A DNA stretch of 32,000 nt from Promethearchaeota archaeon (GTDB lineage: Archaea > Asgardarchaeota > Lokiarchaeia > Sigyniarchaeales > SOKP01), in assembly GCA_030606485.1 (NCBI GenBank), contig JAUWGH010000001.1, positions 300,001 to 332,000 of the forward strand. Reading direction: 5' to 3'. The first letter of the stretch is position 1. Each line of letters opens with the position of its first letter. Below the pieces are notes generated by a model. That model did no database searches and was not told the DNA's origin. It saw nothing but the letters and a program-made list of their open reading frames with translations. Made by a program: the position numbers and the translations under genes. Shown piece by piece: positions 2,229 to 29,127 of this stretch.

Positions 2229-3512
2229 ATGCCAATGTATCAAGACCAAGCAATAAATGATGAAATAATAGAAAAAATGAGCCTAAAAAATCGGTACACC
2301 TTTTTTAACAATAATTTAATGGCAATCTTAAGCCCCGAACAATTTAATTTCTTAAGAAAAGTACAAAGATTCTGTATGAGATACGAGAAAAAAAATAACA
2401 TCCAACACAGTATGGATGAGGATATTTACCAATGGATTCCCGATTTTGGTGCAGAAGGATATGTAACACGTTCATATAAAATGGATGAACTTGATATTAA
2501 TTATGAAGAACATGGTGCTGCTGCTGAAACGATGAGAATTCTTGCAGTTGATCAGTTTGATACCCAGTTTTGTATGGCTATGGGCGCCACAATATTAGCA
2601 ATAAATGCAATCAAAGCTCATCATGAAGGTATCCAAGAACGTTTAGATGCCCTAAGAGATCTAATGACCGGTAAAGAATGCGGAGCAATTTTAATAACAG
2701 AACCCGAAAGAGGTTCGGATGCTGTACATCAATTGACAGTCACCGAACCCCAAGAAGATGGCAGCTTAATTATTAATGGTGAGAAAATTTATAACACCAA
2801 CTCCCCCAAAGCTAAATGGGTTGTTGGATATGGTACTGCAGTAGCAAATGAAGGCAATCAAATGACCCAATACTTAATTAATACAAGTTGGGACGGATGG
2901 AGGAGCGAAAGAGTATTCATTCCGTGGACTCCAAAAATTTGGATTGGCCATAATCACCTAACTAATATAAGAGTCCCCCCAGAATATGTTTTAGGGGGCG
3001 TTGGAAAAGGGAGGGATCACCTATTTGAAGGATTAATACTAGAAAGAATTGGGATCGCAGTAGGAAATGTTGCTCAAGCATGGACCGCCCTTTCACACGC
3101 ATTTATTTATATCAACATGAGAAAGCAATTTGGCCAAGAAGTCTTAAAATTCCAAGGAGTTGGTTTCACCTTTGCCGATTATTGGGCAAGAACAACAAAT
3201 TTAACTATAGGATTATTAAAATTCTGCGAAGAATATGATAAAAAAATGGAAAAATTTGGGGGTGAGATTCCAAGAAATATCTCCCAAGCAATGGTTGCTT
3301 CCTCTAGCCATTTTAAATTGGAAGCATCTCGATTATCCGAACGTTGTTGTTATGAAATGGCGAATCTTATGGGAGGTGCTGGTGTCTGTGATAATACATT
3401 AATGTGGGATCTCGTAGGAATCTCAAGAATACAGGAGATAGTTGGCGGGACAAGACAGATACAACAATACATCATTTCTATGGCGAATCGTCAATTATGG
3501 AAAATGTTATAG
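2229..3512 (+). CDS. Acyl-CoA dehydrogenase (ACAD), paralog 2
   Basis: Same ACAD motifs (ILITEPERGSD, RKQFGQEVLKFQGV, RIQEIVGGT); 61/81 identical to paralog 1 over the first 81 residues (hand count). Confidence 0.93.
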   Translation: MPMYQDQAINDEIIEKMSLKNRYTFFNNNLMAILSPEQFNFLRKVQRFCMRYEKKNNIQHSMDEDIYQWIPDFGAEGYVTRSYKMDELDINYEEHGAAAETMRILAVDQFDTQFCMAMGATILAINAIKAHHEGIQERLDALRDLMTGKECGAILITEPERGSDAVHQLTVTEPQEDGSLIINGEKIYNTNSPKAKWVVGYGTAVANEGNQMTQYLINTSWDGWRSERVFIPWTPKIWIGHNHLTNIRVPPEYVLGGVGKGRDHLFEGLILERIGIAVGNVAQAWTALSHAFIYINMRKQFGQEVLKFQGVGFTFADYWARTTNLTIGLLKFCEEYDKKMEKFGGEIPRNISQAMVASSSHFKLEASRLSERCCYEMANLMGGAGVCDNTLMWDLVGISRIQEIVGGTRQIQQYIISMANRQLWKML

Positions 3513-3572
3513 ATAATAAAATTATATCCTTATTATAAAATTATTTTCATTTTCTTTTTTTTCCTTATTCTT

Positions 3573-4361
3573 TTAATTCAGTGAATTAAAAATTAAAATT
3601 ATCGCCAATACTATACAAATTAATATGATAATTAGCCCTAAAAAGTTGTATTTACGTTTAAATCCCCGGTTTTGAGATAATTCACTTGGGTTATTGGTAT
3701 TATCATATTGAGTCATTACTGTTTCTGTTTGTGTGGTCTCTATCATTTGAGTGGTTGCCTGTTTTTTAATTATCTTATCTAATGAATTCCATGCTTTATC
3801 AATTGATTCTTTTACTTCTTGAGAAATTTCCTCATCAGGTATTTCAAATATTTGGGTTGTAGTATCTAATCCTACAGTCAGTTTGTATTGTTCGGTAAAT
3901 TCTTTATCAACTAATGCACTTAGAATGGTAGTTTTGCCAACGGCTGCTGGTCCTGCAAGAACGACTTTAAAATTATAATTTTCTTTATCAATAATTTGCC
4001 CCAATTTAGGGGGAGAGCGTATATCCATTAAGGCTAATAAAGCCATCTTGTCAAATAACTTTTTAATATTTAAACCTGATAACGCTGAAGTTTCTATATA
4101 TTCCAGTAAGCTATACCTATGAACAACATCAAGGATTTTTTTTTTCCCCATTAAGATGCCAAGATCTTTCTCGAGATCCTTTTTATTTCCCACGAGAATA
4201 ATTGGGATATTTCCAGCTTTTACTCGTATCTCATTATAATATTTTTCAAGTCTATCGAAAGTATCCGGGCGGGCTAAATCAAATATTAGAGCGATTATCG
4301 AAGCGCCTTTAAAGAAATCACTCTTAAAAAATTCGAATCTTTCCTGTCCACCGATCTCCAA
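3573..4361 (-). CDS. Rab/Ras-like small GTPase, circularly permuted (G3-G4-G5-G1-G2), with C-terminal transmembrane anchor
   Basis: EIGGQERF (G3-like, aa 2-9), LVGNKKD (G4, 59-62), ETSAL (G5, 90-94), KVVLAGPAAVGKT (G1, 137-144), TVGLD (G2, T162), then a T/Q-rich linker and hydrophobic FLGLIIILICIVLAIILIF (240-258). Start uncertain: the frame is open up to 4391. Confidence 0.85.
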   Translation of the reverse strand: MEIGGQERFEFFKSDFFKGASIIALIFDLARPDTFDRLEKYYNEIRVKAGNIPIILVGNKKDLEKDLGILMGKKKILDVVHRYSLLEYIETSALSGLNIKKLFDKMALLALMDIRSPPKLGQIIDKENYNFKVVLAGPAAVGKTTILSALVDKEFTEQYKLTVGLDTTTQIFEIPDEEISQEVKESIDKAWNSLDKIIKKQATTQMIETTQTETVMTQYDNTNNPSELSQNRGFKRKYNFLGLIIILICIVLAIILIFNSLN

Positions 4362-4544
4362 AACGGAAAGAGTTATTCTTACGATAATCCCTCACTTATT
4401 ATTAATGATTGAAGTGTTCAATATATTAATAAGTTGGAGAAAAATAATTAATTTATCTTATTTACCAGAAAATAATTTCAATTTCCCCAATAAACTACTT
4501 GTTCTGTATAAGTTAATCGTAAAATGAAAATAAAAAAAGTAGGT

Positions 4545-7301
4545 TTAAATTTTTAAGACTTTCTTTTCCAAGGTTAATTCTAATGCTTCTTGCATAGCTT
4601 TTTCGTATATATCAATCTTAAATTTATTATGAAACGGGGATATTTTTGTCCCAAGTTTTGCCATTTTGTATAAAGCTTTTGGAAAGACTCCGATAGCTCC
4701 TTCCACAAGATTTGCTGCTCTCTCCAATTCATTAATTGTATTATCATCATAACCTCCGAAAAGTCCATCAAGGAAAGCATAGAAAAATATAAATCCAAAA
4801 ATTCCGATTATGAACAAGATAGCTGTGTTTATTATCAAATCACCTAGAGGAATCATCCAGATTAAATCTCCGACGATTGATAATACCAAAAAGTTTACAA
4901 TAGCTGCAAGGGCAGGAACTAAGAATGTTTTAAATGGATATACTTTATATGTTGTTATCTTGTAGCGAACAATAATCCACAGTAGGATCCCCTTCAAAAT
5001 TACTGCCGGTATATAAGCGAATAATACTGCCTCCATATTTTTCAGCCAAATGACTAAAATTATTATTAGTATAGCCCTCGACGTTTGTTCCATTATCCAA
5101 ACAAAAGCAGCTAAGCCTGTTTTTCCGGTTCCTTCAAGGATTGCATCACCTAGCCAACAAAATACTCCAAATGTATGAAAAATCAGTAAAGGATACAGAA
5201 ATTTTACTGCTGGCCCCCCATATTCAATTCCTGCTGCACCCACAATAAATTTTGCACCAATTGCAAAAAGAACCGAGACTATAAAAAACGCGAAATAATT
5301 GGCCCACCTAAAGCCCTGATAGATATATAGTCTTGTTAAGGTTGGCTTTCCATGTTCATATGATTCACTATATGCTCCTAATAATGATTGGGCATATAAT
5401 GCAACAATTTGTACAATCATGCCAATCCCCCAACATAAATTAAAATATCCTAGCTCGTTTGAATAATTCGCAATAAACATACTCGTGACTATTATCTGTA
5501 TAAACCAGCCAATTTGTACAAAAGATTCTCCAAATGCTAATTTTGATCCATATTTTATAGATTCGTTAAATTCATCTTTTGTAAAATCAATTCGAAAAAC
5601 AGTTTTAACAGAAAATCCCTGTTTTTTGAATAATATCATGGAGAATAAAAATGTAACCCAATAATCGAAATATCTTGCAATAGCATATCCAATTCCTGCT
5701 CCCAATGCTTCTCCAATAATCGGATTTGCAGCGCCCCACATTCGACCCAAATAACAAAAGATCATTTGTCCTACCAAAAGCCAAATCACTTCCCATGCAA
5801 CATAGGTTATAAGATGTAAGTCTGCTTTTTGCATTCCTTGGAAGGTGTACATAAATACTAAGAAGAAACCGGGATATTGAACCAAAGAAAAAGTTACAAA
5901 AATCCAACTCATGTGTGCTATATTTGTCATTGGAAATATTATTGACCCAATAAACGCGAATATACATACCTGAATTAAACCAGTTAGTAGTTGCCACCAA
6001 ACAAAGATTTGTATGTAATGTACTGCCTTCTCAGGATTTTTTACTCTATATTGAGCAAAGTATTTGGCTAATGCGAATGACGTACCAAGGTCAAACACCA
6101 GCCAAGCAATTTGGAATATATTATAAGCGTAATAATACCAACCAGCAGCTTGAGGATAAGGTTGGATAATTTGGGGCATTACAAAACTGGAAATTAATAA
6201 TTGAGGGATAACCAAGATTAAGCTGATAAAAAGAGTAAAAAGAAAGCCACCCAATTGCCTATGAATTCCAATTACTTCCCAATCATCTTTTAAGTCAATT
6301 TTTGCCTCGATTTTCCCTTTAAGTTCTTCTTCTTCTTCTCTCCTTTTTCTCTCCTCTTCTTCTGCTTGTAATCTCAATGTTTCAATAGTTGCTTGATCCA
6401 TTTTGGATTCGGATTTTTTCCTCATCATTACGAATAATGAAACTGCCAAGATTGCCAAGCATATAACAACTATCAGTATAATTATCTGATCTCTGAGATG
6501 TGGAACTGGGGAAAATGCCCATTGACTGTATTTTTGATATTGTTCACCTATACTTTCAAACGCCATTGTGTATAGTAAATAATTAAAATAGGGCCATAGA
6601 ACAAAATGAATATTAGCACCTTCTTCCACCCATCCTGTAAATAAAAGTATATTTCCGTTTCCTTTTGCCATTTCTACTAATATAGGCTGGCGATACAGAT
6701 CAATTTCTAAATTTTTTGAAGCCGGATAAACATCAATCACTCTATCAATGGAATTGTTAAAATCTTGAGTTGGAATAACTGTCATATTCCCTATAATCAT
6801 ATCAGGAGCAGAATTCCAATCAATATTTTGGCTGATTGGATGTGAAATATCTCCTACGACGAATAAATTTGATTCACTATTTTTTTGAAAATTTGCATCG
6901 GTAATTATTATTTGAAAATCTTCTAAGAGTGTAGCATCATTATGTAAATTTTGCCCCATAAAGATTATACACGAACCGCCACTATCCACGAAATTTCCTA
7001 TAAGGGATATCTCTGAGGTGTCCAAAGAAGCATCAAATAGAACGATGATATCAACCGAAGGATCGATCGAGGTAATTGGAGTTAAATCTGAAACGATTGT
7101 AATATCAAAATTATCCTGGTCGACTTGTATGCTCTGTCGAAAATGAGAATCGGTTCCTTTACTAATTACCAAGAGATTTTTTTTATCTGCTCCTTGACCG
7201 CCTGAAGGAATAATTAAAAGAATAAAACTCATACCACTTATAAACAGCGCAATTAGGCCTATTACTAATAACTTTGATATTTTTTGATTAGATTTTACCA
7301 T
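4545..7301 (-). CDS. MOP-superfamily (polysaccharide/oligosaccharide flippase, MATE-like) transporter fused to an N-terminal extracytoplasmic domain
   Basis: N-terminal TM/signal, ~230-aa soluble alpha/beta domain (LLVIS..., DIIVLFD..., GGSCIIFMG), a TM helix, charged coil (EEEERKRREEEEE), then ~12-14 TM segments with MOP-like features (FDLGTSFALAKYFAQYR, ILEGTGK). Confidence 0.7.
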   Translation of the reverse strand: MVKSNQKISKLLVIGLIALFISGMSFILLIIPSGGQGADKKNLLVISKGTDSHFRQSIQVDQDNFDITIVSDLTPITSIDPSVDIIVLFDASLDTSEISLIGNFVDSGGSCIIFMGQNLHNDATLLEDFQIIITDANFQKNSESNLFVVGDISHPISQNIDWNSAPDMIIGNMTVIPTQDFNNSIDRVIDVYPASKNLEIDLYRQPILVEMAKGNGNILLFTGWVEEGANIHFVLWPYFNYLLYTMAFESIGEQYQKYSQWAFSPVPHLRDQIIILIVVICLAILAVSLFVMMRKKSESKMDQATIETLRLQAEEEERKRREEEEELKGKIEAKIDLKDDWEVIGIHRQLGGFLFTLFISLILVIPQLLISSFVMPQIIQPYPQAAGWYYYAYNIFQIAWLVFDLGTSFALAKYFAQYRVKNPEKAVHYIQIFVWWQLLTGLIQVCIFAFIGSIIFPMTNIAHMSWIFVTFSLVQYPGFFLVFMYTFQGMQKADLHLITYVAWEVIWLLVGQMIFCYLGRMWGAANPIIGEALGAGIGYAIARYFDYWVTFLFSMILFKKQGFSVKTVFRIDFTKDEFNESIKYGSKLAFGESFVQIGWFIQIIVTSMFIANYSNELGYFNLCWGIGMIVQIVALYAQSLLGAYSESYEHGKPTLTRLYIYQGFRWANYFAFFIVSVLFAIGAKFIVGAAGIEYGGPAVKFLYPLLIFHTFGVFCWLGDAILEGTGKTGLAAFVWIMEQTSRAILIIILVIWLKNMEAVLFAYIPAVILKGILLWIIVRYKITTYKVYPFKTFLVPALAAIVNFLVLSIVGDLIWMIPLGDLIINTAILFIIGIFGFIFFYAFLDGLFGGYDDNTINELERAANLVEGAIGVFPKALYKMAKLGTKISPFHNKFKIDIYEKAMQEALELTLEKKVLKI

Positions 7302-7431
7302 ATGAAATCAATTTAATAAAATTTTTATTGCTTTTAGATAGAATTAGGAAATATATAAATAGTATCTTTTTTAACAATTTATTAATTGTCCATAGTTCTC
7401 GTTTAAAGGTCTTAAATCCAAATTCGACCAT

Positions 7432-8298
7432 TTAGAATTTCAATTTAATCCAGAGCTCTTCTCCTGGTTGTTTAAAGAAGGGATAATAAGGTTTAAGACC
7501 TGTTATTAAACCCCAGATTATTGAACAAGTAATGAAAATAAGTGCTTCAATTAGTACCACCCAAACAAATGGATGATCGCGAATACAATTTTTTTTTTTT
7601 AATTTTGTAGCAACAATAAATAAGACTAGACCAATATTAATTAACAATAGGACAAAAGTTGCTTGACCTTCAGTGAATCCATAAAACCATACGATCCCAT
7701 ATCCAATTCCCACAAGTGTGATAAATAACCATTCAAACCATTTCAAATCTCTCGAAGGTGGACTGAATAATAATCCCCCCATAAACATACTCATTAATAT
7801 CATTAGTGGGACGGCTAAAGCCATATGCCCAAAAATTTCATCCCAAAAATAAATTGCATAATAGAGATCTGCGTAAAAAGGGTCTGAAAGAATTTTTGTA
7901 ATATCAAAGGCTCGTCTATTTAAATCATTGACGACTTTATGAATAGCATTTCCTAAGCACATCGTGCAAACTGTAACAAAAAATATAACTTCTAAGGCAG
8001 CTATCCATTTCGTGGACAATTTTTCTTTTAATAAGATTTGTTCATCAAGGAAAATGCTCTTAAAAACTTTCCATGTGATAACAGAAAAAACAGGCCCCAT
8101 CAAGAATATTTCTATTAAATCTTGCGCTGGAATGACAAATGATACTTCCTGATCAAGTTCTGAAATCCAATAACTAATTGTAATTGAAAAATAATCTCCG
8201 AGTAATGTAATCAAATAACACATTGCATATCCTATGAAAAACCATAAAAAAAGCTGAAACTCTTTTTTAGAATTTGCATTAATGTGATTAATTGACAT
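7432..8298 (-). CDS. Polytopic membrane protein of unknown function (~7-8 TM)
   Basis: 288-aa ORF with repeated hydrophobic segments and intramembrane polar motifs GNAIHKVVND and WDEIFGH. Confidence 0.75.
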   Translation of the reverse strand: MSINHINANSKKEFQLFLWFFIGYAMCYLITLLGDYFSITISYWISELDQEVSFVIPAQDLIEIFLMGPVFSVITWKVFKSIFLDEQILLKEKLSTKWIAALEVIFFVTVCTMCLGNAIHKVVNDLNRRAFDITKILSDPFYADLYYAIYFWDEIFGHMALAVPLMILMSMFMGGLLFSPPSRDLKWFEWLFITLVGIGYGIVWFYGFTEGQATFVLLLINIGLVLFIVATKLKKKNCIRDHPFVWVVLIEALIFITCSIIWGLITGLKPYYPFFKQPGEELWIKLKF

Positions 8299-8455
8299 TA
8301 TTTATTTCTCTTATTAATCTATTTTGAAATTATGTTCATTACAAATAGTTTTGAAATTTTGTTATTAGATTTTGATATATGAATCGATTTATTTTAATTA
8401 CATATCAACTGCTAAAATATAAAATTTAGATCATTTTTTTTAAATAATCGTTGAT

Positions 8456-9307
8456 TTAGATGTGGATTAATTTTTCACTAATCTCCCATACTTTTTTTTG
8501 AATAGTTTCATCGTATGTCATCTTATGCGATTTTACAGGTATACATTTTTTAAAGTATTTTCCCGAAATCTTTTCAACTTCAGGCGACGACGCGAGATAT
8601 ACAGATGTTTCGGCTGCTTCTTCCGGACTTTTAGAAAACAAATTCATAATTTTTTTAATAATCCAAGAGACATTTGTCTGTGTCATTTTCGTTCTGGCAT
8701 GACCAGGGTGGAGGGCATTAACAGTTACTCCTGTTCCATCTAACCTGCGTGCTAGTTCGTATGTAAATAGAATAATTGCGAATTTTGCTGAACCATAAGC
8801 TTTTTGGGAAGAATATTTTTTTTCAAACATTAAATCATCCAAATTTATTTTAAAATAACGGTGGATATCCGATGATACATTGATTATTCGTGATGGGGCA
8901 CTTTTTTTTATAATATCAAGTAAGAGTTTTGTTAATAGAAAGTGAGAAAGATAATCAGCCGCAAATGTGCTCTCATATCCATCTTCGGTTAATACTTTTT
9001 TACTATTAAATACACCGGCGTTGTTTATCAAAATATGCAACTTGTCATATTTTTTCTTAAATTCATCAGCTAAATTTTTAACTGATTCTAAAGATGCGAG
9101 GTCTGCAATTATGAGGTCAACATTACTATTTCCAGATTCTTCTTTTATTTGTTTTTGTGCATTTTCCCCTCGTTCTTTATTTCGACAGACCATGACAATA
9201 TGGATTCCCATTTTTGCTAATTGAATAGCAGTTGCTTTACCGATCCCAGAATTAGCACCCGTAATCATGCAAGTTTTTCCTTTCAATTGATAATTATTCT
9301 CGCTCAT
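8456..9307 (-). CDS. Short-chain dehydrogenase/reductase, retinol dehydrogenase/WWOX-like
   Basis: TGANSGIG Rossmann motif, LINNAG, catalytic YGSAK (YxxxK), VNALHPG. Confidence 0.93.
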   Translation of the reverse strand: MSENNYQLKGKTCMITGANSGIGKATAIQLAKMGIHIVMVCRNKERGENAQKQIKEESGNSNVDLIIADLASLESVKNLADEFKKKYDKLHILINNAGVFNSKKVLTEDGYESTFAADYLSHFLLTKLLLDIIKKSAPSRIINVSSDIHRYFKINLDDLMFEKKYSSQKAYGSAKFAIILFTYELARRLDGTGVTVNALHPGHARTKMTQTNVSWIIKKIMNLFSKSPEEAAETSVYLASSPEVEKISGKYFKKCIPVKSHKMTYDETIQKKVWEISEKLIHI

Positions 9308-9377
9308 CCTTTTCAGCTTAGAATTTTAACTAAATCTTTCAATAACTAAATGAGATTCAAATAGCATATTTTAGTGA

Positions 9378-9433
9378 AGGTATACTCCTTATTAAAAATC
9401 TTCATCTAAAAGTAATATTTAATCATGAGATTT
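9378..9433 (+). repeat. 56-bp direct repeat, left copy; decayed copy of the helicase 3' end
   Basis: aggtatactccttattaaaaatcttcatctaaaagtaatatttaatcatgagattt matches 11741-11796 at 53/56. On the minus strand it reads KSHD*ILLLDEDF* versus helicase KSHDKILLFDEDF*. Confidence 0.95.
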
Positions 9434-9613
9434 ACATATATTTTAGACTATCTTTTTTTGAATATTCTGTTGTAAATATTATAAAAATTCTGCGCCCCTC
9501 TCTTACTTAAATACCCAAATTCGTTAGATTTTTTAATAAAAATAGAATTATCAATAAATTTCTCATGAAATCCTAATTAAATCTTATCTTAAAATAAAAA
9601 TAATGATTAAAAA

Positions 9614-11758
9614 GTGACTAAAAATTTTTCTCAAGTAGAATTAAACTTCTTAAAAAGTAAAGGGATTAATATAAAAAATCTTAAGACAAGATGGGCATGG
9701 GTTAATGAAAATCTTGCTGTTGAATTTTACCGCGATTTCTTAATACCTTATTTTAAAAAAGTACCAACCAATAACGAGTTGGACGCTCATGGATTTAGAG
9801 GATTTAGATATGCAGTTGGTCGTATTAGGAAAAAAATGACCGAAATCACAAAAGCGGCGGGATATAAACCACATTTCGAAGTAAAATATAGGGATTTGTC
9901 ATTTGAAGATTTGGTTGAGCTCTATATATATAAAATTTACCCGGAATTAAAGGAGAAACTCAAACTTTCCAAAGAACAACCTCCAACTCAATTGCAAATG
10001 GAAACAAATGGATATCGCGGATTCATAGATGCAATTTATAAGAGAGGTAGAAATATTCCAGATTTACAAAAAGCTGCGGGTTTTAAACCACTTAAAGAAT
10101 TTAATTATGCAGGCAAATCGTTCGTAGAACTAGTGGAGATGTTTTTAAATGAAATTTACCCAGATTTAAGGAAGAAGTTAAAACTACCAGAGGGGGAACA
10201 CCCCAAAAAGGAAGATATTGATAAATACTATAATGGTTTACTTAAAGCACTTGGACGAATAGGTAAAACTTATAATAACCTTGCGAAAGCAGCTGGCTTC
10301 ATGCCGAGGATGGAGCATAAATATATTGAAAAATCTTTTGAAGAACTCGTTGAAATGTTTAAAAATGAAATATATCCAGCTCTCGTGAAAAAATTATCAT
10401 TACAGAAGAGTGTGGCTCCAACTAGAGACCAAGTAGAAAAAAATTTTCGTGGTTTTACAAATGCTTTAACCAATATGAAAAAATATTATCCTGAATTATT
10501 AAGAATAGCAGGATTTGAACCGAAATATGAGCAAAAATATAGAGATATGAATTTAAAAGATTTAGTGGAATTTTTTTTAGAAGAAATATATCCATTTGTA
10601 AAAACAAAACTCACAGAAAAGGGATTGAATCTTGGAGATAAAGAAGCTCCCACCGTAAAGCAAATTCGAAAATATGGATATGGCGGTTTTATTCAGAAAT
10701 TATATAAAATTACATCATATAATGATTTAATAGAAGCTGTTGGGTTAGAACCTAATGTTGAATATCGATATGTAGATATGGATTTTAAAGATTTAGTCGA
10801 TTTTTTCAAAACACAAATTTATCCTGATGTGAAATCCCAAATAATAATTGGAGAAAATGAAGCTCCTAGCAAATTAGAATTATGCGATTTGGGCTATACT
10901 GGATTTTTTGATGCAATTTATCGAACTGGAAAAACTTATTTTCAATTAGTGAAAGAAATGGGTTTTATACCAAGACAATCAATTGGATCTGAATTAGGAA
11001 CATTAAATCATAAGGCTATTAATTTTTTAATCTCAGATTGGGTTAACCAAGATAAATCTCCTAATATAATATATTATATCGAGGTAAAATTATTCGATCC
11101 AGTGAATGAATTTAGAATTGATGGATTTTTAATTAACAACAAGATAATCCAAAACCATATAACTTACAATTTTAAAAATTGGATATATAAACAAATTGAT
11201 AATCTCTCTCAGAAAAAGCTTTTGGTTGGATTAATTGATAAAATAATCGATAAAAAATTCTATTTATTTGATTATTCCAATGCATACTTTAACCGTTTTA
11301 ATAAAGTAAATTTAAAAATGGTGGCATCAAAAATTATTAAGTATCGGAAAAATAATTTAGCGAATTTATTTCTTGTGGGGACAAAATGGCCATATCATGG
11401 ACTGTATATTATTAAACTTCCAGAATACATAAATTATGGTATTAAAAAAGTACATACCGCAAATACAATTCTTATCAGTCATGTTCTTTTTGCCAAATTG
11501 ATAGGATTGGATGGTTCATTTCTCCAAAAATTTAAAGAAATTATTTCTTGTAATCAGAAAGATGATTTAAATAATTTATTTAAAATCATTGAAGCTTATG
11601 AAAAGAAAGAAATAAGAACACATCAAACTAAGGATTTAACGAAATTCCTTAAGAAATCATCTAATGTTCAAATAAAAATAAATAGCTATTTGTCTGAATT
11701 ATTTAATTTCTATATTGATTTTACAACTTTAGATAAATGGAGGTATAGTCCTTATTAA
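9614..11758 (+). CDS. Tandem-repeat protein (six ~72-77 aa repeats resembling homing-endonuclease-associated repeats) with a putative C-terminal PD-(D/E)XK-like nuclease
   Basis: Repeat consensus IYPxL..KL.L....P(T/S)..ql...gyrGF..Al.r.gk.y..L.kaAGF.P..e.kY.d.sf.eLVe.F. C-terminus has GTLNH, YYIEVKL, RIDGFLI, YLFDYS, KIIKY. Nuclease assignment is by motif resemblance only. Confidence 0.65.
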   Translation: MTKNFSQVELNFLKSKGINIKNLKTRWAWVNENLAVEFYRDFLIPYFKKVPTNNELDAHGFRGFRYAVGRIRKKMTEITKAAGYKPHFEVKYRDLSFEDLVELYIYKIYPELKEKLKLSKEQPPTQLQMETNGYRGFIDAIYKRGRNIPDLQKAAGFKPLKEFNYAGKSFVELVEMFLNEIYPDLRKKLKLPEGEHPKKEDIDKYYNGLLKALGRIGKTYNNLAKAAGFMPRMEHKYIEKSFEELVEMFKNEIYPALVKKLSLQKSVAPTRDQVEKNFRGFTNALTNMKKYYPELLRIAGFEPKYEQKYRDMNLKDLVEFFLEEIYPFVKTKLTEKGLNLGDKEAPTVKQIRKYGYGGFIQKLYKITSYNDLIEAVGLEPNVEYRYVDMDFKDLVDFFKTQIYPDVKSQIIIGENEAPSKLELCDLGYTGFFDAIYRTGKTYFQLVKEMGFIPRQSIGSELGTLNHKAINFLISDWVNQDKSPNIIYYIEVKLFDPVNEFRIDGFLINNKIIQNHITYNFKNWIYKQIDNLSQKKLLVGLIDKIIDKKFYLFDYSNAYFNRFNKVNLKMVASKIIKYRKNNLANLFLVGTKWPYHGLYIIKLPEYINYGIKKVHTANTILISHVLFAKLIGLDGSFLQKFKEIISCNQKDDLNNLFKIIEAYEKKEIRTHQTKDLTKFLKKSSNVQIKINSYLSELFNFYIDFTTLDKWRYSPY

Positions 11759-11796
11759 AAATCTTCATCGAAAAGTAATATTTTATCATGAGATTT
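11741..11796 (+). repeat. 56-bp direct repeat, right copy; contains the live helicase 3' end and the stop of the repeat-nuclease gene
   Basis: 53/56 identical to 9378-9433; the convergent stop codons overlap at 11755-11758. Confidence 0.95.
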
Positions 11797-14106
11797 TTCC
11801 AAAAGATATTCTAATATATAAATTGCGCCAGGACGAGATAATGGCCGATTATTGTTGCCACATTTTGGCGAGTATGTACAACCAGGACAGCCCGTATAAG
11901 AAGTGCATTTACATTTTTTAAGTAAATCAAATGTAGCCTCGAGTAATTTTCGAATAATTGGGTATAAACTTTCAGTGATTCCAATTCCACCTTTATACCC
12001 ATCATAAACATAAATAACTGGTTGGTTATGGTATGTATCCACATCAATAGAGACTCCACCGAGGTCCCATCGATCTATCAATGCAAATATTGGAGAGATT
12101 GCAATTATTGCATGTTCTAGGGCATGAATTGAGCCCCCCAAATTATAATTAAGAGTATCTAACTCACTCTCAAGATGTTCTGGAATTAATAACCAAAATG
12201 CTTTTGTTTCAAATTCTATGGTTGGGAGGTCTAAATCGTAATAATTTAGTATCTCTTGAGTAAGTGTTTCGACTTCTCTATATGCATAATAATCATGCTT
12301 AACTTTAACATCTCCATAATAAATATGAATTTTATCATTGAAGATCTCATTGTCTACTTTAATTTGTGATATTTCGGTATGTTTTAATGATTCCGTGTAA
12401 AAATTCAAATCTGATTTTCTAATATAGACTTTTTTCTGTTCAAAGTCAATTTCTTCTACTAAATAACTCTCCGCTTCAAATAAATATACTGCACCAGTGT
12501 GTAAATCTCTAAAGATATAACTCTCGTCCTCAGATGTTAGAATTTCCTCTTTTTTTTCTCTGGATTTTAGAATAATTTTATAATTATTCTCTGACAAATC
12601 GTCAAGGTTATATCTTCCATTTGGAAAGAATCCACCTGTCCAAAAATATTTTTGACCTCTTTTATTTAGAAGTCCTTGATTTACCAGATAACTCAAAATT
12701 TCCTTAAAATATTGTTTATCTTCAATTCCAAATGATAAGTTTTCATTTTCAGATAGTGGAATTTCATTTGCTGCACAACTAAGTTGATTTCTAAGAAGGT
12801 ATTTATTAGTTAAGGTAATAAGAAGTTTCTCGTTAGGGGCTCCAAATAATTTTTCGGGATGATGAACATAAAAGAGATCGAGAGGGTTTGGCATTGCTAC
12901 GTAAGTTGCAAAAGATATATCCTCTCCTCTGCCTGCTCTTCCAATTTGTTGGCGAAAGCTCGAAATTGTGCCAGGAAATCCAGAAATTATAGTAGCATCA
13001 AGGGTTCCTATATCCATTCCTAATTCAAGTGCATTAGTTGAGCTCACTCCCAGAATTGTATTCTCTCTCAGACCTTTTTCAATTTCTCGTCTTGTTTCTT
13101 TTCTTATTCCTGCCCTATAGCTTCGCACTCTATTTTCAATTGAAGGCATTTCCAATTTAAGGGCGTTCTTAGCCCAGATGGCGTGCAATTCACTCATTTT
13201 GCGCGAAGTTGTGAAAGTTAAAGTTTGAATTCCTTTCTTTAAATGTGCTAGGTAAATATTTTTAGTCTCTTGATGGGCTGATCTATAAGAATTTAGAATT
13301 TCATTATAAGGTAAATCCCATAAAAATACTTTTTTTTCTCCAGTAGGTGAAGTATCTTTATCAATAACATTCACCTCCTCTCCAATTAGTTTCTCCATGA
13401 ATTCTTTTGCTTCTGTTCCCATTGTTGCACTTGCGAGAATCCAAATTGGTTTAATATTAAGAGTATTTAAAATTCTTTTTAATCTTCTAATCATTAAGGC
13501 AAAATTAGAGCCAAAAATTCCCCGATAAGTATGAACCTCATCAATAACAATATATTTCAGGTTTTTTATTATTCGGTTCCAACGTCTCTTGAAACTTGGC
13601 AAATATTGATGCAATGCGTAAGAATTCGTTAGGATAATGTTTGAAGTTCGAAGAATTTGATCTTTTTTTGATTTCTCTACACTACCATCATAAACACCGG
13701 CTAAAGATGGGTCTAAATTTAAATCTTTCAAAAATTCTTGGAGTTTAGACTGCTGATCCCGAGTAAGGGCTTTTCTAGGAAAAATATAGATAGCGCAGTT
13801 ATTTTGATTTTTAAGAATTGAATTCATGACGGGGATATTGTAGCATAAGGTCTTTCCTGAAGCCGTTGAAGTGATAATCGCAGTATTTTTTTTACCAAGT
13901 ATGCTATTTACTGCATCTGCTTGATGTTTCCATAAAATAATCCCTTGATTTTTTAACCAATTACTTAACTTTTTATCTATTGGTAGGTTTAGTTCTCCAA
14001 ACTCTGCCTTCCTTTTTGGAATTGTCTCAATATGGGCTATTTGTTCATCATAAAAATCTTGATGTTTTAAGTAATTTAGAAAATCAGTAAAATCAATCAT
14101 ATTCAA
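11755..14106 (-). CDS. DEAD/DEAH-box helicase with DUF1998 C-terminus (Hrq1/MrfA/YprA-like)
   Basis: STASGKT (motif I), DEVH (II), SAT (III), TNALELGMDIG (V), QQIGRAGR (VI), HALEHA, and C-terminal Cys cluster CKCTSYTGCPGCTYSPKCGN. Confidence 0.93.
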   Translation of the reverse strand: MNMIDFTDFLNYLKHQDFYDEQIAHIETIPKRKAEFGELNLPIDKKLSNWLKNQGIILWKHQADAVNSILGKKNTAIITSTASGKTLCYNIPVMNSILKNQNNCAIYIFPRKALTRDQQSKLQEFLKDLNLDPSLAGVYDGSVEKSKKDQILRTSNIILTNSYALHQYLPSFKRRWNRIIKNLKYIVIDEVHTYRGIFGSNFALMIRRLKRILNTLNIKPIWILASATMGTEAKEFMEKLIGEEVNVIDKDTSPTGEKKVFLWDLPYNEILNSYRSAHQETKNIYLAHLKKGIQTLTFTTSRKMSELHAIWAKNALKLEMPSIENRVRSYRAGIRKETRREIEKGLRENTILGVSSTNALELGMDIGTLDATIISGFPGTISSFRQQIGRAGRGEDISFATYVAMPNPLDLFYVHHPEKLFGAPNEKLLITLTNKYLLRNQLSCAANEIPLSENENLSFGIEDKQYFKEILSYLVNQGLLNKRGQKYFWTGGFFPNGRYNLDDLSENNYKIILKSREKKEEILTSEDESYIFRDLHTGAVYLFEAESYLVEEIDFEQKKVYIRKSDLNFYTESLKHTEISQIKVDNEIFNDKIHIYYGDVKVKHDYYAYREVETLTQEILNYYDLDLPTIEFETKAFWLLIPEHLESELDTLNYNLGGSIHALEHAIIAISPIFALIDRWDLGGVSIDVDTYHNQPVIYVYDGYKGGIGITESLYPIIRKLLEATFDLLKKCKCTSYTGCPGCTYSPKCGNNNRPLSRPGAIYILEYLLEKSHDKILLFDEDF

Positions 14107-14271
14107 AGAGATTTGAACATATTTATTTATAATATATAAGAATCACATAAATTAGAAAATTTATCCTTTTAATTATAAAAGAGACTGAAGAAATTTAAAA
14201 TTACAAATCTACTTTATTAATTTATATAAATTTTAAATCTCTATGAATTTTAATTAAATGAGGATATTGAA

Positions 14272-15294
14272 ATGGAAGATTTTACATGGAAACTGATTGA
14301 GCCAGAGCGAATAAAGAGCGAAAATTTAGGACAATATATATTGCAGAACGCACCTCCTCTATTATATACTAAAAATGATAAAGAGAAAACGTCGGTAAAT
14401 TATTTGATCTCCTTCTTTTTTATAGTTGGATTCTACCTAATCTTTCTCAGTATTTGGACTTTTATAGAAATTGATCTTGGTGGGTTTGAATTATATTTAT
14501 TTTTTTTCATTACAATCATAGTTATTGTTATTGCCTTGCCCCTATTAATACTTTATATTCGCAGAAATGTGTATAACAAGCCTATTCAATCATATTATGA
14601 ATGGTTTATTGCTCAATCTGATAATATTGAAACCATATATTCATGTTTAGTTCAATATCCGATTTTCTCGGGTAAAACTCATCCTGATAAAGGATTCAAT
14701 AGAGCTTATAAGATCTACGAAGAAACGGTGTTATCTAATACAATTGATATTACTCAAATTGAGATTTATTTTAAAATCAACAGTAAGAATCCTAATAATT
14801 TAGAATCTCTTGAACTTATCGGATATTTTTTTAAATATGGAGAAGGGCAACAATTTTTTGATGAAAATACAAATCGAGATGTATGGAGATTTTTTGAGGC
14901 GTCTAAATCAAAAGAAGATAATTTTATTTCGGTGGCGAGCTGGGATCACTTATATGAATGGAGAGATGATTTGGTTTTTGATTTTGATAAATTACATGAA
15001 TTAGCACCATGGATAATACTTCGCTGGAATAATTTAAATCTGATTCCATTAACTCCAGAAGCAAAAAAAAAATTGAGATTTGACAAAAGAAATATCACCC
15101 CCTCGCCCAAATTAAAACCATGGGCTGGAGATTTATTTAAGCAAGAATATCATAATGAAGCTGAGTATAATGATTTAAAAGTTACTCAAAATGCAATTAA
15201 AACAATTTTAGGTGATATCATTTTAAGTAAAAACTCTAAACAAATTAAGAAGAATTTTAATAATTTTAAAGAATATTTTGTAAAAAATGCCTAA
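14272..15294 (+). CDS. Hypothetical membrane protein (2 N-terminal TM + soluble domain)
   Basis: 340-aa ORF; hydrophobic segments at about aa 43-66 and 73-95; no recognised motif. Confidence 0.75.
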   Translation: MEDFTWKLIEPERIKSENLGQYILQNAPPLLYTKNDKEKTSVNYLISFFFIVGFYLIFLSIWTFIEIDLGGFELYLFFFITIIVIVIALPLLILYIRRNVYNKPIQSYYEWFIAQSDNIETIYSCLVQYPIFSGKTHPDKGFNRAYKIYEETVLSNTIDITQIEIYFKINSKNPNNLESLELIGYFFKYGEGQQFFDENTNRDVWRFFEASKSKEDNFISVASWDHLYEWRDDLVFDFDKLHELAPWIILRWNNLNLIPLTPEAKKKLRFDKRNITPSPKLKPWAGDLFKQEYHNEAEYNDLKVTQNAIKTILGDIILSKNSKQIKKNFNNFKEYFVKNA

Positions 15295-22593: not shown

Positions 22594-24021
22594 TTGACGA
22601 AAATAAATACAAAGATTCCTGATGTTAAAGACTTGTTATGGAAAATTACATTACAAGTCTTTAAAAATAAACTATTAATAAATAATCTATTTTCCACAGA
22701 TATTGGGAAACTCTTAATTGAAAAATTAGATCAAGAGACTGATATTTCGAAATTTCAATGGAATTTTAAATCTAATGGAAGTCGTAATTTATTACAATCT
22801 TATTTTATTCCACACTTTCTCGAAAAATGTATTAATATAGTTAATTCTAAATATAACGAGTTTTCGAAACTATTTGAAATTTTAGAAAAAGAAATACTAT
22901 TATCTAATGATTTCACCTATAGATTAAAAATTCCAATTTTTAGGATATGGTTTCCTGAGAATGTGAAAATTATACACTTCGATAAAAAACACCATTTAAG
23001 AGATATTAGAGAAGAAGAATTGCCATATGGAGATAAAGAACCGTTATGCAAATTCAAAGATATCCCAAGTAGTTGGTCAAGACTTAGAGAAAAACAACCT
23101 GAAGCTAGTTTCGAAATCGAGTTGAGAATCCCTAAAAGATTGAATCATGAGGCTGTTTATGAGCCAAATTTCACTCCAACAGCTCCTTTTAATCCTCTAG
23201 AGGGAACAAATCCTATTTTAGAAAAGGTTAGAAGTCTTTATGCATTTTTCTTAATTTATAATCCACTTTATAGTATTCGTCCATTTACTATTGGAGATAA
23301 ATTTTTTGTTAAATTGCCACCTTTTTCTTTGAATTATCAAGATTTCACTATTCATACTTATAATGAATTTCCTCCTCCTAGTGGCGTATTAGATTTGAAA
23401 AATAATAATAAATTGAATGATTGGAAAGATTGCTGGAAAAATAATTACTCCGCGTTCTATAAAAAGTATTATCGTTGGACTAAAGTTGATGAGGATATTA
23501 GGATTTTCAGATATGCACTTGAAGTATTAGGTACGATACCTAGTATACATTATGTAAAAATTAAGAATTTTTTAATCATTTCGACTTTAGAGGGTTTACT
23601 TTTTCACGAAAAAATTAAAAAAAAACTAAAAATTACTACAAATGAAAAAAGAAGACCTGTTATTCATGCATTCTGTAAAGTATGTGGAGATCAAAATGAA
23701 TATTGGCAATTTATTTTTCAACGTAAATTTCCACTTAAAATTAAATTAAATTCATTTAAAACTGAAAAAGAACTGAAAGAATTACTAGGATGCGCATATA
23801 ATTATAGAAATAATATTGCTCACCCCAACAAGATTAAGACCATTAAACTTAAACCAAAAAGTTTATGTCCTCCGCTTTCTAATGAATCAGATGAAAAAAT
23901 TCTAGATGGTGTTATTTCTAGTAATTTTCACTTATTTATTTTATTTCTATTAAAAACTTGGGTTAAAAAAAAGTTCAAGAATGTTGATGAATGGATGGAT
24001 TATTTATTAAAAATTTCTTGA
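22594..24021 (+). CDS. HEPN domain protein (ApeA-like architecture: N-terminal domain + C-terminal HEPN)
   Basis: NFLIISTLEGLLF helix and AYNYRNNIAHPN (R-x4-H) in the C-terminal ~150 aa. TTG start uncertain. Confidence 0.7.
   Translation: MTKINTKIPDVKDLLWKITLQVFKNKLLINNLFSTDIGKLLIEKLDQETDISKFQWNFKSNGSRNLLQSYFIPHFLEKCINIVNSKYNEFSKLFEILEKEILLSNDFTYRLKIPIFRIWFPENVKIIHFDKKHHLRDIREEELPYGDKEPLCKFKDIPSSWSRLREKQPEASFEIELRIPKRLNHEAVYEPNFTPTAPFNPLEGTNPILEKVRSLYAFFLIYNPLYSIRPFTIGDKFFVKLPPFSLNYQDFTIHTYNEFPPPSGVLDLKNNNKLNDWKDCWKNNYSAFYKKYYRWTKVDEDIRIFRYALEVLGTIPSIHYVKIKNFLIISTLEGLLFHEKIKKKLKITTNEKRRPVIHAFCKVCGDQNEYWQFIFQRKFPLKIKLNSFKTEKELKELLGCAYNYRNNIAHPNKIKTIKLKPKSLCPPLSNESDEKILDGVISSNFHLFILFLLKTWVKKKFKNVDEWMDYLLKIS
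23877..23952 (+). repeat. 76-bp direct repeat, left copy (inside the HEPN gene near its 3' end)
   Basis: 74/76 identical to 29052-29127. Confidence 0.95.
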
Positions 24022-29051: not shown

Positions 29052-29127
29052 TTCTAATGAATCAGATGAAAAAATTCTAGAAGGTGTTATTTCTAATAAT
29101 TTTCACTTATTTATTTTATTTCTATTA
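29052..29127 (+). repeat. 76-bp direct repeat, right copy (intergenic, displaced fragment of the 475-aa HEPN gene)
   Basis: 74/76 identical to 23877-23952; begins 9 nt after the DUF3800 stop; reads SNESDEKILEGVISNNFHLFILFLL. Confidence 0.95.

Follow-up and report, generated by a model that had tools for sequence, protein, structure and literature searches.

How does a single gene come to lie between two copies of a short direct repeat when the bracket holds no recombinase? The question is raised by a locus of an Asgard archaeal genome (G000; 3.75 Mb, 13 contigs), contained in a stretch of 32,000 nucleotides (nt), C10:300001-332000, which we refer to as the window. The gene, P0001, encodes a nuclease-like protein and lies between an SDR oxidoreductase gene and the helicase gene P0002, which is single copy in 21 of 25 relatives. 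The closest homologs of the helicase carry the NCBI label Promethearchaeota (Asgard). GC content is ~30%, Ras-family GTPase genes are present (Pfam), and the sequencing runs holding the locus are metagenomes from cold-seep, marine-sediment, subsurface, and hydrothermal sites. An earlier note on this DNA had proposed an integrase-free, homing-like or trans-mobilised single-gene element that duplicated its target, possibly of an undescribed class. We favor another explanation and hold it with moderate confidence: The 59-bp repeat is the scar of homology-anchored recombination with one illegitimate joint, and the resulting structure spread by ordinary recombination, without nuclease drive. P0001 itself is an old, patchily kept accessory gene, arranged tail-to-tail with a core helicase at the edge of a variable region.

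The repeat comprises 59 nt, and its two copies, A and B, are identical at 55 of 59 positions. It is the same repeat that the earlier note gave as 53/56 with slightly tighter ends, and it brackets exactly one gene, as stated there. A search of the 3.75-Mb genome returns these two copies only (E 2.6e-19; next match E 0.01), and homology does not extend past either edge (shuffle tests, p 0.32 and 0.11). Copy B is the live one. It carries the final 13 codons and the stop of the helicase gene, plus the final 7 codons of P0001; the two genes are convergent and their stop codons overlap within it. Copy A begins 68 nt before the SDR gene, upstream of its start codon, and reads KSHD*ILLLDEDF* on the minus strand (asterisks denote stops), a decayed helicase tail with a premature stop. 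The earlier description of a live copy, a decayed copy just upstream of the SDR gene, and an inserted gene ending within the repeat is thus borne out, as is the lack of a recombinase: P0001 is the sole substantial open reading frame (ORF) in the bracket and has no recombinase or transposase domain (Pfam, NCBIfam, PADLOC), no integrase is encoded among the neighboring genes scanned (2229-15294), and a repeat search found no inverted repeats at the bracket ends.

Two familiar classes of mobile DNA were considered and rejected on these grounds. A transposon or insertion sequence is incompatible with the lack of both a transposase domain and inverted repeats, and 59 bp is far above a typical target duplication. 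An integron cassette with its '59-base element' fails because the repeat is helicase coding sequence, because the scanned neighbors include no integrase, and because P0001 is oriented opposite to the SDR, 288-aa, and 918-aa genes. An artefact of assembly might be suspected in a metagenome-assembled genome, all the more as the repeat length is near common assembler k-mer sizes. However, the copies differ at 4 positions, and both are bridged by contigs from other runs in independent assemblies from several studies. The same structure recurs in seven independently assembled loci, with copy A identical in the four compared base by base (L088, L089, L091, and L092). We regard this explanation as refuted, its remaining probability being negligible.

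The origin of copy A is revealed by its first codons. The repeat begins with TGG AGG (Trp-Arg), and copy A has TGA at the Trp codon. P0001 ends in TTLDKWRYSPY and its ortholog P0004 (57% identity) in TTLDRWRKP, with TTLD[KR]WR in common; the C-terminal Trp is also kept in P0005, in the relative from genome G024, and in P0016. Since the repeat opens with the conserved C-terminal codons of P0001 itself, the supposed target had already hosted the gene, and copy A, judged by these codons, is the relic of an older P0001/helicase junction. An orthologous relic of 68 nt lies at site 2 of genome G002 beside a full SDR gene; it shares the left junction of copy A as well as its TGA and C variants. Its helicase tail is intact and coding (LLEKSHDKILLFDEDF*) and reaches 9 nt further into the helicase than copy A, the joints lying 42 nt (G000) and 51 nt (G002) before the helicase stop. 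The G002 relic then joins an unrelated 3.15-kb insert, beyond which follow a 230-nt 5' fragment of the SDR gene, intergenic DNA of the type found in alleles that lack P0001 ("empty"), and a helicase with an empty-type tail. Consequently, an allele without P0001 but with the tail of P0001-bearing ("filled") alleles would have existed and been rearranged twice. The insert itself (L051, G002:C247, 6148-9298) contains four ORFs of no known family (137, 164, 206, and 480 aa), and the 480-aa ORF runs through the relic in a different frame.

P0001 is a presence/absence polymorphism at one fixed site beside the conserved helicase. The site is filled in G000, strains L086-L092, the ERZ24794679 contig, G024, and L102, and empty in G002-G004, L084, L093, and L095. 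In the same-genus genome G003 and in L095, the SDR gene is followed after 56 nt by the helicase. The empty allele that the earlier note had anticipated in relatives therefore exists, though without the single repeat copy that was expected in it: the 59-bp sequence is absent from the empty alleles of G003, G002 site 1, and L095, where the helicase tail and the intergenic DNA differ. The intergenic segment of the filled haplotype, IG(w), resembles that of empty alleles only over ~25 nt beside the SDR start. Likewise, empty-type helicases end in ...PLDKDGALYI... with short tails (e.g. ...FLEIDED*), whereas the filled-type tail carries the signature EAT...PLSRPGAIYILEYLL, which is common to the 73%-identical helicase beside P0004. 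The window helicase switches ~60 residues before its end; upstream of this point it is 90-100% identical to its genus-mates. The 781-aa helicase form is found only on P0001-bearing contigs, and every sampled P0001 contig that reaches the helicase shows it, while the 772/773-aa forms with examined context are without P0001.

These alleles bear directly on a remnant of an integrative element, or an element mobilised in trans, whose attL and attR would be the 59-bp copies, whose recombinase gene would be lost or located elsewhere, and which would have carried a replacement 3' end for the helicase. Archaeal integrative elements frequently use the 3' ends of genes, and here, too, direct repeats bracket the insert and the element side carries the live, restored 3' end of the target. 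Unlike in such elements, no integrase accompanies the insert, the repeat contains the conserved C-terminal codons of the cargo gene, and the supposed attB is missing from the empty alleles. Moreover, the relic in G002 is bounded differently (68 vs 59 nt) and adjoins an unrelated structure, and the relatives that occupy this site are without any att-like repeat. Contigs from four runs, which cannot show rare junctions, were compared with the locus, and no circle or back-joint was seen in them, rare forms being invisible in contigs. Their sole joint spanning the site (9310 -> 11940, run X13) is a divergent empty allele; short-sided joints in X1 (9705 -> 10070 and 11203 -> 11693; side 21) are internal-repeat or foreign matches. 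Altogether, we consider an integrative origin very improbable.

The association of P0001 with the helicase is much older than the repeat. P0004 is convergent with the 779-aa helicase P0034, one base apart, on an 84-kb contig (ERZ24794679); P0034 and P0002 share 73% identity. A 1358-aa relative of P0001 (32-40% identity) overlaps the helicase stop in G024, and so does the 830-aa relative P0016 in L102 (GCA_019894855.1, same lineage as G024); the helicases beside these two are 56-58% identical to that of the window. Neither the relative in G024 nor that in L102 is flanked by a duplicated helicase tail. As convergent pairs occur at 73% and 56-58% helicase identity and the latter are without duplication, the pairing is old and the duplication young. 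The idea of a target duplication that marks a new element class is not supported by these comparisons: the empty alleles are without the sequence, the repeat starts with codons of P0001, the homologous genes in G024 and L102 are not flanked by it, and comparable repeats occur elsewhere without a P0001-type gene (see below).

Within genera, the gene is patchy (present in 1/5 in g1 and 1/3 in g2). The cluster of P0001 comprises 16 near-identical proteins, and all six members whose context was looked up sit between the SDR gene and the 781-aa helicase form. A paralog in G004 (L080) is likewise without a flanking duplication when its insertion site is compared with the empty site of G000 (C8 377221-377373). 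In G014, the gene that immediately follows the helicase on the same strand (L055, G014:C88, 6647-7078, minus strand) encodes a protein of 143 aa with one P0001-type N-terminal unit (47% identity to P0001 residues 4-85); this protein may be a remnant or a minimal member of the family.

Divergence between strains delimits what has moved recently. We compared the window with the filled strains L088 and L091 by the proportion of synonymous differences (pS, Nei-Gojobori). For P0001, pS is 0.019 against either strain; for the last 243 nt of the helicase it is 0.019 (L088) and 0.058 (L091). In the helicase body it rises to 0.116 and 0.122, in the SDR gene to 0.108 and 0.131, and in the 340-aa gene to 0.225 and 0.235, so that the flanking genes overall (helicase body, SDR, Ras, and 340-aa gene) range from 0.11 to 0.24. 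The block of low divergence spans about 9000-9400 to about 12000. In comparison with empty strains, the helicase tail shows a pS of 0.33-0.48 and a proportion of nonsynonymous differences (pN) of 0.14-0.20, while the body (pS 0.10-0.25) is as close to them as to filled strains. The low divergence of the block and the linkage of the tail haplotype to the gene define P0001 and the helicase tail as a discrete module, which has recently entered several diverged backbones; the SDR gene is backbone-like and lies outside it. Since copy A is identical in the four loci compared, the duplication appears to have formed once and now travels with the module. Just inside the module boundary, a patch of the helicase (12000-12400) shows 8-16% nucleotide divergence among otherwise close strains.

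From these data, we infer both an order of events and the type of joint. First, an ancestral allele would have lost P0001 and retained the last ~21 nt of the gene together with the filled-type helicase tail beside the SDR gene. P0001 would then have been regained from a filled allele, with one end of the incoming DNA recombining homologously within the helicase and the other joining illegitimately 42 nt inside the resident helicase tail. Such an event would be homology-facilitated illegitimate recombination or, equivalently, the one-ended repair of a double-strand break. Copy B, with its complete helicase end, would have come with the incoming DNA, thereby stranding the resident end as copy A. 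Finally, the finished structure, from about 9000-9400 to about 12000, would have spread among diverged strains by homologous recombination. The anchor in the helicase (mosaic breakpoint ~60 aa from the C-terminus), the sharp non-homologous edge at the other joint, and the displaced fragment match homology-facilitated illegitimate recombination. Recipient-type sequence is seen only as relics, in copy A of G000 and at site 2 of G002.

Orphaned 3' fragments are known from Rhs, contact-dependent inhibition (CDI), and type VI secretion system (T6SS) effector loci, for which the same type of recombination has been proposed (PMC5361080; de Vries & Wackernagel 2002 cited therein). As in those loci, a conserved anchor lies on one side, a new 3' end comes in, the displaced resident end decays, and the element encodes no recombinase. 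In contrast to them, the anchor is a housekeeping helicase, the cargo is a separate convergent gene rather than a toxin tip with an immunity gene, the host is an Asgard archaeon, and the fragment that stays is just 59 nt long. The scar belongs to a known kind of structure and is new in its setting; the P0001 protein family is uncharacterised.

Several points weigh against such a scar. An intact allele without P0001 but with a filled-type tail was not found, all 781-aa forms seen adjoining P0001. The two illegitimate joints of G000 and G002 are just 9 nt apart, which is unexpected for random joining and hints at a site-specific break. The G003 locus corresponding to a second repeat of G000 (contig C1, see below) has cargo without relic, so relics can arise or vanish separately from cargo. 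The sixfold lower pS of the module, which recurs at sites from three or more studies, suggests that drive or selection acts in addition to passive recombination. To our knowledge, homology-facilitated illegitimate recombination is not known from Asgard archaea.

The close spacing of the joints in the helicase tail and the sharp edges of the low-divergence block also count in favor of active homing. On this account, P0001 would be a free-standing homing endonuclease, combining a repeat array with a divergent PD-(D/E)xK domain, which cuts the 3' end of helicase alleles without P0001. Repair from a filled allele would co-convert P0001 and the last ~240 nt of the helicase, and the 59-bp duplication and the G002 relic would be breaks repaired imprecisely on the non-homologous side. 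The predicted architecture of the protein is compatible with this role. Each of its six ~73-aa units terminates in an A-G-(F/Y/L)-x-P motif, and the array is presumed to be a modular DNA-binding array resembling homing-endonuclease-associated repeats. By language-model features, its nearest named neighbors carry PF18780 HNH_repeat and PF26683 Tyr_recomb_halo_N (scores 0.85-0.88), whose tandem helical units likewise end in an A-G-(F/L)-x-P-like motif. The precomputed match of PF26683 to P0001 is faint, the units are longer than those of PF18780 (~73 vs 54 aa), and a six-frame genome search with the PF18780 profile hidden Markov model found no match in P0001; the relation to PF18780 is resemblance by language-model features, not membership. 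Family searches (Pfam, NCBIfam, PADLOC) returned nothing for P0001 except a sub-threshold TPR_22.

The C-terminal domain of 260 residues is rare: a search of 1.84 billion representatives found 26 relatives. Relatives instead have arrays of ordinary helix-turn-helix repeats in front of this domain, which fits an architecture of DNA-binding array plus effector domain. An AlphaFold (AF2) model built on alignment A2 (predicted local distance difference test score, pLDDT, 88; predicted template modeling score, pTM, 0.87) has an alpha-beta-beta-(alpha-alpha)-beta-alpha-beta core. Re-aligned Foldseek candidates are almost entirely PD-(D/E)xK nucleases (Z 4-6.2 over 110-150 residues), including the HerA-associated nuclease, Can2, McrC, the R2 endonuclease domain, Cap4, Bse634I, SgrAI, Cfr10I, and NgoMIV, and the atlas structure neighbors are Eco47II and EcoO109I (TM 0.43). 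A profile search of PDB sequences with A2 and a plain Foldseek search of the PDB (no match under E 0.04) were both negative, and the comparison of the fold with all PDB representatives (VIA-align) returned generic helical bundles only, which stem from long helices and are uninformative. Conserved motifs in A2 are YYxE, (I/P)DG, FD[FY][ST]N, KxxKY, and GTxW, with conserved acidic Asp residues in (I/P)DG and FD[FY]. In FD[FY][ST]N, Ser/Thr stands where (D/E)xK has its canonical Lys, while K119 and K122 are conserved on the next helix; catalytic competence is uncertain because of this replacement. P0001 looks like a sequence-specific nuclease. It appears to share the restriction-endonuclease-like alpha-beta core and conserved acidic residues on beta strands with Eco47II, EcoO109I, Cfr10I/NgoMIV/SgrAI, and, by fold class, I-Ssp6803I. 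Unlike I-Ssp6803I and type II restriction enzymes, P0001 has no sequence-level relation to them, Ser/Thr in place of the motif Lys, and no partner methyltransferase in sight.

A close parallel is provided by the free-standing homing genes of T-even phages (seg, mob; 'intronless homing'), which sit between conserved genes, whose endonucleases cut the neighboring conserved gene in genomes without them, and which are inherited with their co-converted flanks (PMC2988022). P0001 resembles them in being a single putative nuclease gene beside a conserved gene, in its presence/absence, in the co-inherited stretch of its neighbor, and in the lack of an integrase. Unlike these phage GIY-YIG or HNH enzymes, P0001 is PD-(D/E)xK-like, has a six-unit array, and resides in a cellular archaeal chromosome. 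The family abuts the 3' end of one core gene in several lineages, yet is patchy per genus; the linked tail polymorphism (SRPGAI vs DKDGAL) could act as a target immunity variant; and a pN/pS of about 0.4-0.6 fits relaxed constraint after an invasion. Presence/absence, the lack of an integrase, a nuclease-like protein, and recent strain-to-strain movement thus make a homing-like reading reasonable, and to this extent the earlier suggestion stands, while its target-duplicating element is not supported.

However, the nuclease activity and the target of P0001 are predicted only, and the Ser/Thr replacement and the moderate fold matches (Z up to 6.2, TM 0.43) speak against a confident assignment. 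P0001 and the helicase have diverged in step (57% with 73%; 32-40% with 56-58%), as in vertical descent plus loss, and a duplication is not normally left by homing. Although the strain comparison displays the co-conversion and horizontal spread typical of homing genes, ordinary recombination at the edge of a variable island yields the same population pattern. We therefore judge active homing a serious but less probable possibility. The more specific proposal, that the P0001 family is an undescribed, free-standing Asgard type of homing endonuclease that targets the 3' end of MrfA-type helicases and spreads with an immune tail variant, leaving the 59-bp duplication and the G002 relic as footprints of imprecise repair, is tentative and rather unlikely.

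Table 1. Features of the P0001 locus in window coordinates (strand left empty where none is assigned).
Feature	Position	Strand	Basis or remark
SDR oxidoreductase	8456-9307	-	Pfam adh_short 1.6e-40; left neighbor of bracket
Intergenic IG(w), filled-haplotype-specific	9308-9374		Nearly identical in G002 site 2 (alignment)
Copy A, decayed P0001 3' end overlapping decayed helicase tail	9375-9433		TGA replaces conserved Trp codon
P0001 upstream region, presumed promoter	9434-9613	+	No homology to helicase or G002 insert
P0001, 714 aa, nuclease-like accessory gene	9614-11758	+	Single copy in genome
P0001 six tandem ~73-aa units, residues 21-453	9674-10972	+	219-nt periodicity, unit alignment
P0001 C-terminal domain, residues 455-714, PD-(D/E)xK-like fold	10976-11755	+	Alignment, AF2 model, structure matches
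Copy B, live P0001 end (WRYSPY*) overlapping live helicase tail (KSHDKILLFDEDF*)	11738-11796		Repeat search, translations
Helicase P0002, 783 aa	11755-14106	-	Pfam DEAD, Helicase_C, WHD_HRQ1, MZB (DUF1998)
Helicase 3' segment, about last 60-80 codons, filled-haplotype tail traveling with P0001	11755-12000	-	pS, signature
Helicase body, backbone ancestry, MrfA-type DEAD/MZB	12001-14106	-	Pfam DEAD, Helicase_C, WHD_HRQ1, MZB

Repeats of comparable build occur elsewhere. G000 contains about twenty two-copy direct repeats of 56-900 nt. One of them, of 76 nt, lies in the window itself (23877-23952 and 29052-29127; 74/76 identical, 5175 nt apart); it brackets a 5.1-kb multi-gene module without a P0001-type gene, its left copy being inside a 475-aa ORF (22594-24021). 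On contig C1 (279737-280002 and 285261-285526; L096 738-1003 and 6262-6527), the 3' end of a GH3 glycosidase gene recurs, as a 266-nt copy of 95% identity, across an operon of PadR and a two-gene ABC transporter, which is convergent on GH3 and includes no recombinase; G003 has this operon without the relic. In G001 (L083, G001:C27, 2254-2742 and 9768-11078), a 507-nt relic of the coaBC 3' end lies beside a 7-kb insert that encodes a 1032-aa HerA/mad8-like ATPase and a 1129-aa protein with P0001-type repeats, convergent on coaBC. There, the live coaBC is more diverged from G000 (84%) than the relic is (91%), as if it had been imported together with the insert. Such repeats speak for a general, recombinase-independent way of gaining genes.

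The abundance of two-copy repeats and the operon without relic in G003, which indicates that relics can be separate small indels, could also be taken to support a purely local event: a templated or duplicative insertion of a P0001-end/helicase-tail segment, or a tandem duplication with subsequent deletion, unrelated to the acquisition of P0001. The G002 relic argues otherwise. It shares the left junction, contains 9 extra nt of helicase sequence, and is not followed by the P0001 upstream region, which contradicts a tandem duplication, an origin that we reject; a templated insertion would require extra events. A local event is therefore improbable, and recombination anchored in the helicase remains the reading that we prefer.

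The variability of the region extends beyond P0001, and the SDR gene is independently present (L095, G003) or absent (L093) in relatives. Starting from the helicase, the gene order is helicase-917 in L084, helicase-288-917 in L093, helicase-SDR-288-918 in L095 and G003, helicase-P0001-SDR-917 in L091, and helicase-P0001-SDR-288-918 in the window. The region beside the core helicase thus behaves as a set of independent cassettes (P0001, SDR, and 288-aa gene). A similar short sequence (TTAGATTTT..ATATGAA.TC.ATTTA...) lies upstream of both the 288-aa gene and the 917/918-aa polysaccharide-synthesis gene (window 7290-7316 and 8366-8410; L093 9377-9431 and 10446-10520). L091 is without the 288-aa gene, and at its junction the two upstream copies are merged into a hybrid, consistent with loss or gain of a cassette via recombination between promoter-like repeats.

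The locus offers a base-pair view of how an Asgard archaeal chromosome gains and loses single genes without an element-encoded recombinase. Relics of gene ends record successive displacement events, which bears on gene flow in the closest prokaryotic relatives of eukaryotes. As a rare, unannotated family with a fixed address and a sixfold lower pS, P0001 is a candidate homing-type selfish nuclease in a cellular archaeon; alternatively, it could serve as a modular scaffold for DNA recognition. As a homing nuclease, should it prove to be one, it would have a new architecture and be a first for Asgard chromosomes. Should the nuclease turn out to be inactive, or to have no part in the spread, an ordinary recombination scar remains.

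Apart from this locus, a Ras/Roc-family GTPase is encoded at 3573-4361 on the minus strand of the window. Its N-terminal ~107 residues align with the latter half of the Ras profile of Pfam, while P-loop NTPase-type matches (AAA_14, ATP_bind_1, and nSTAND3) fall at residues ~128-215, a layout that fits a circular permutation.

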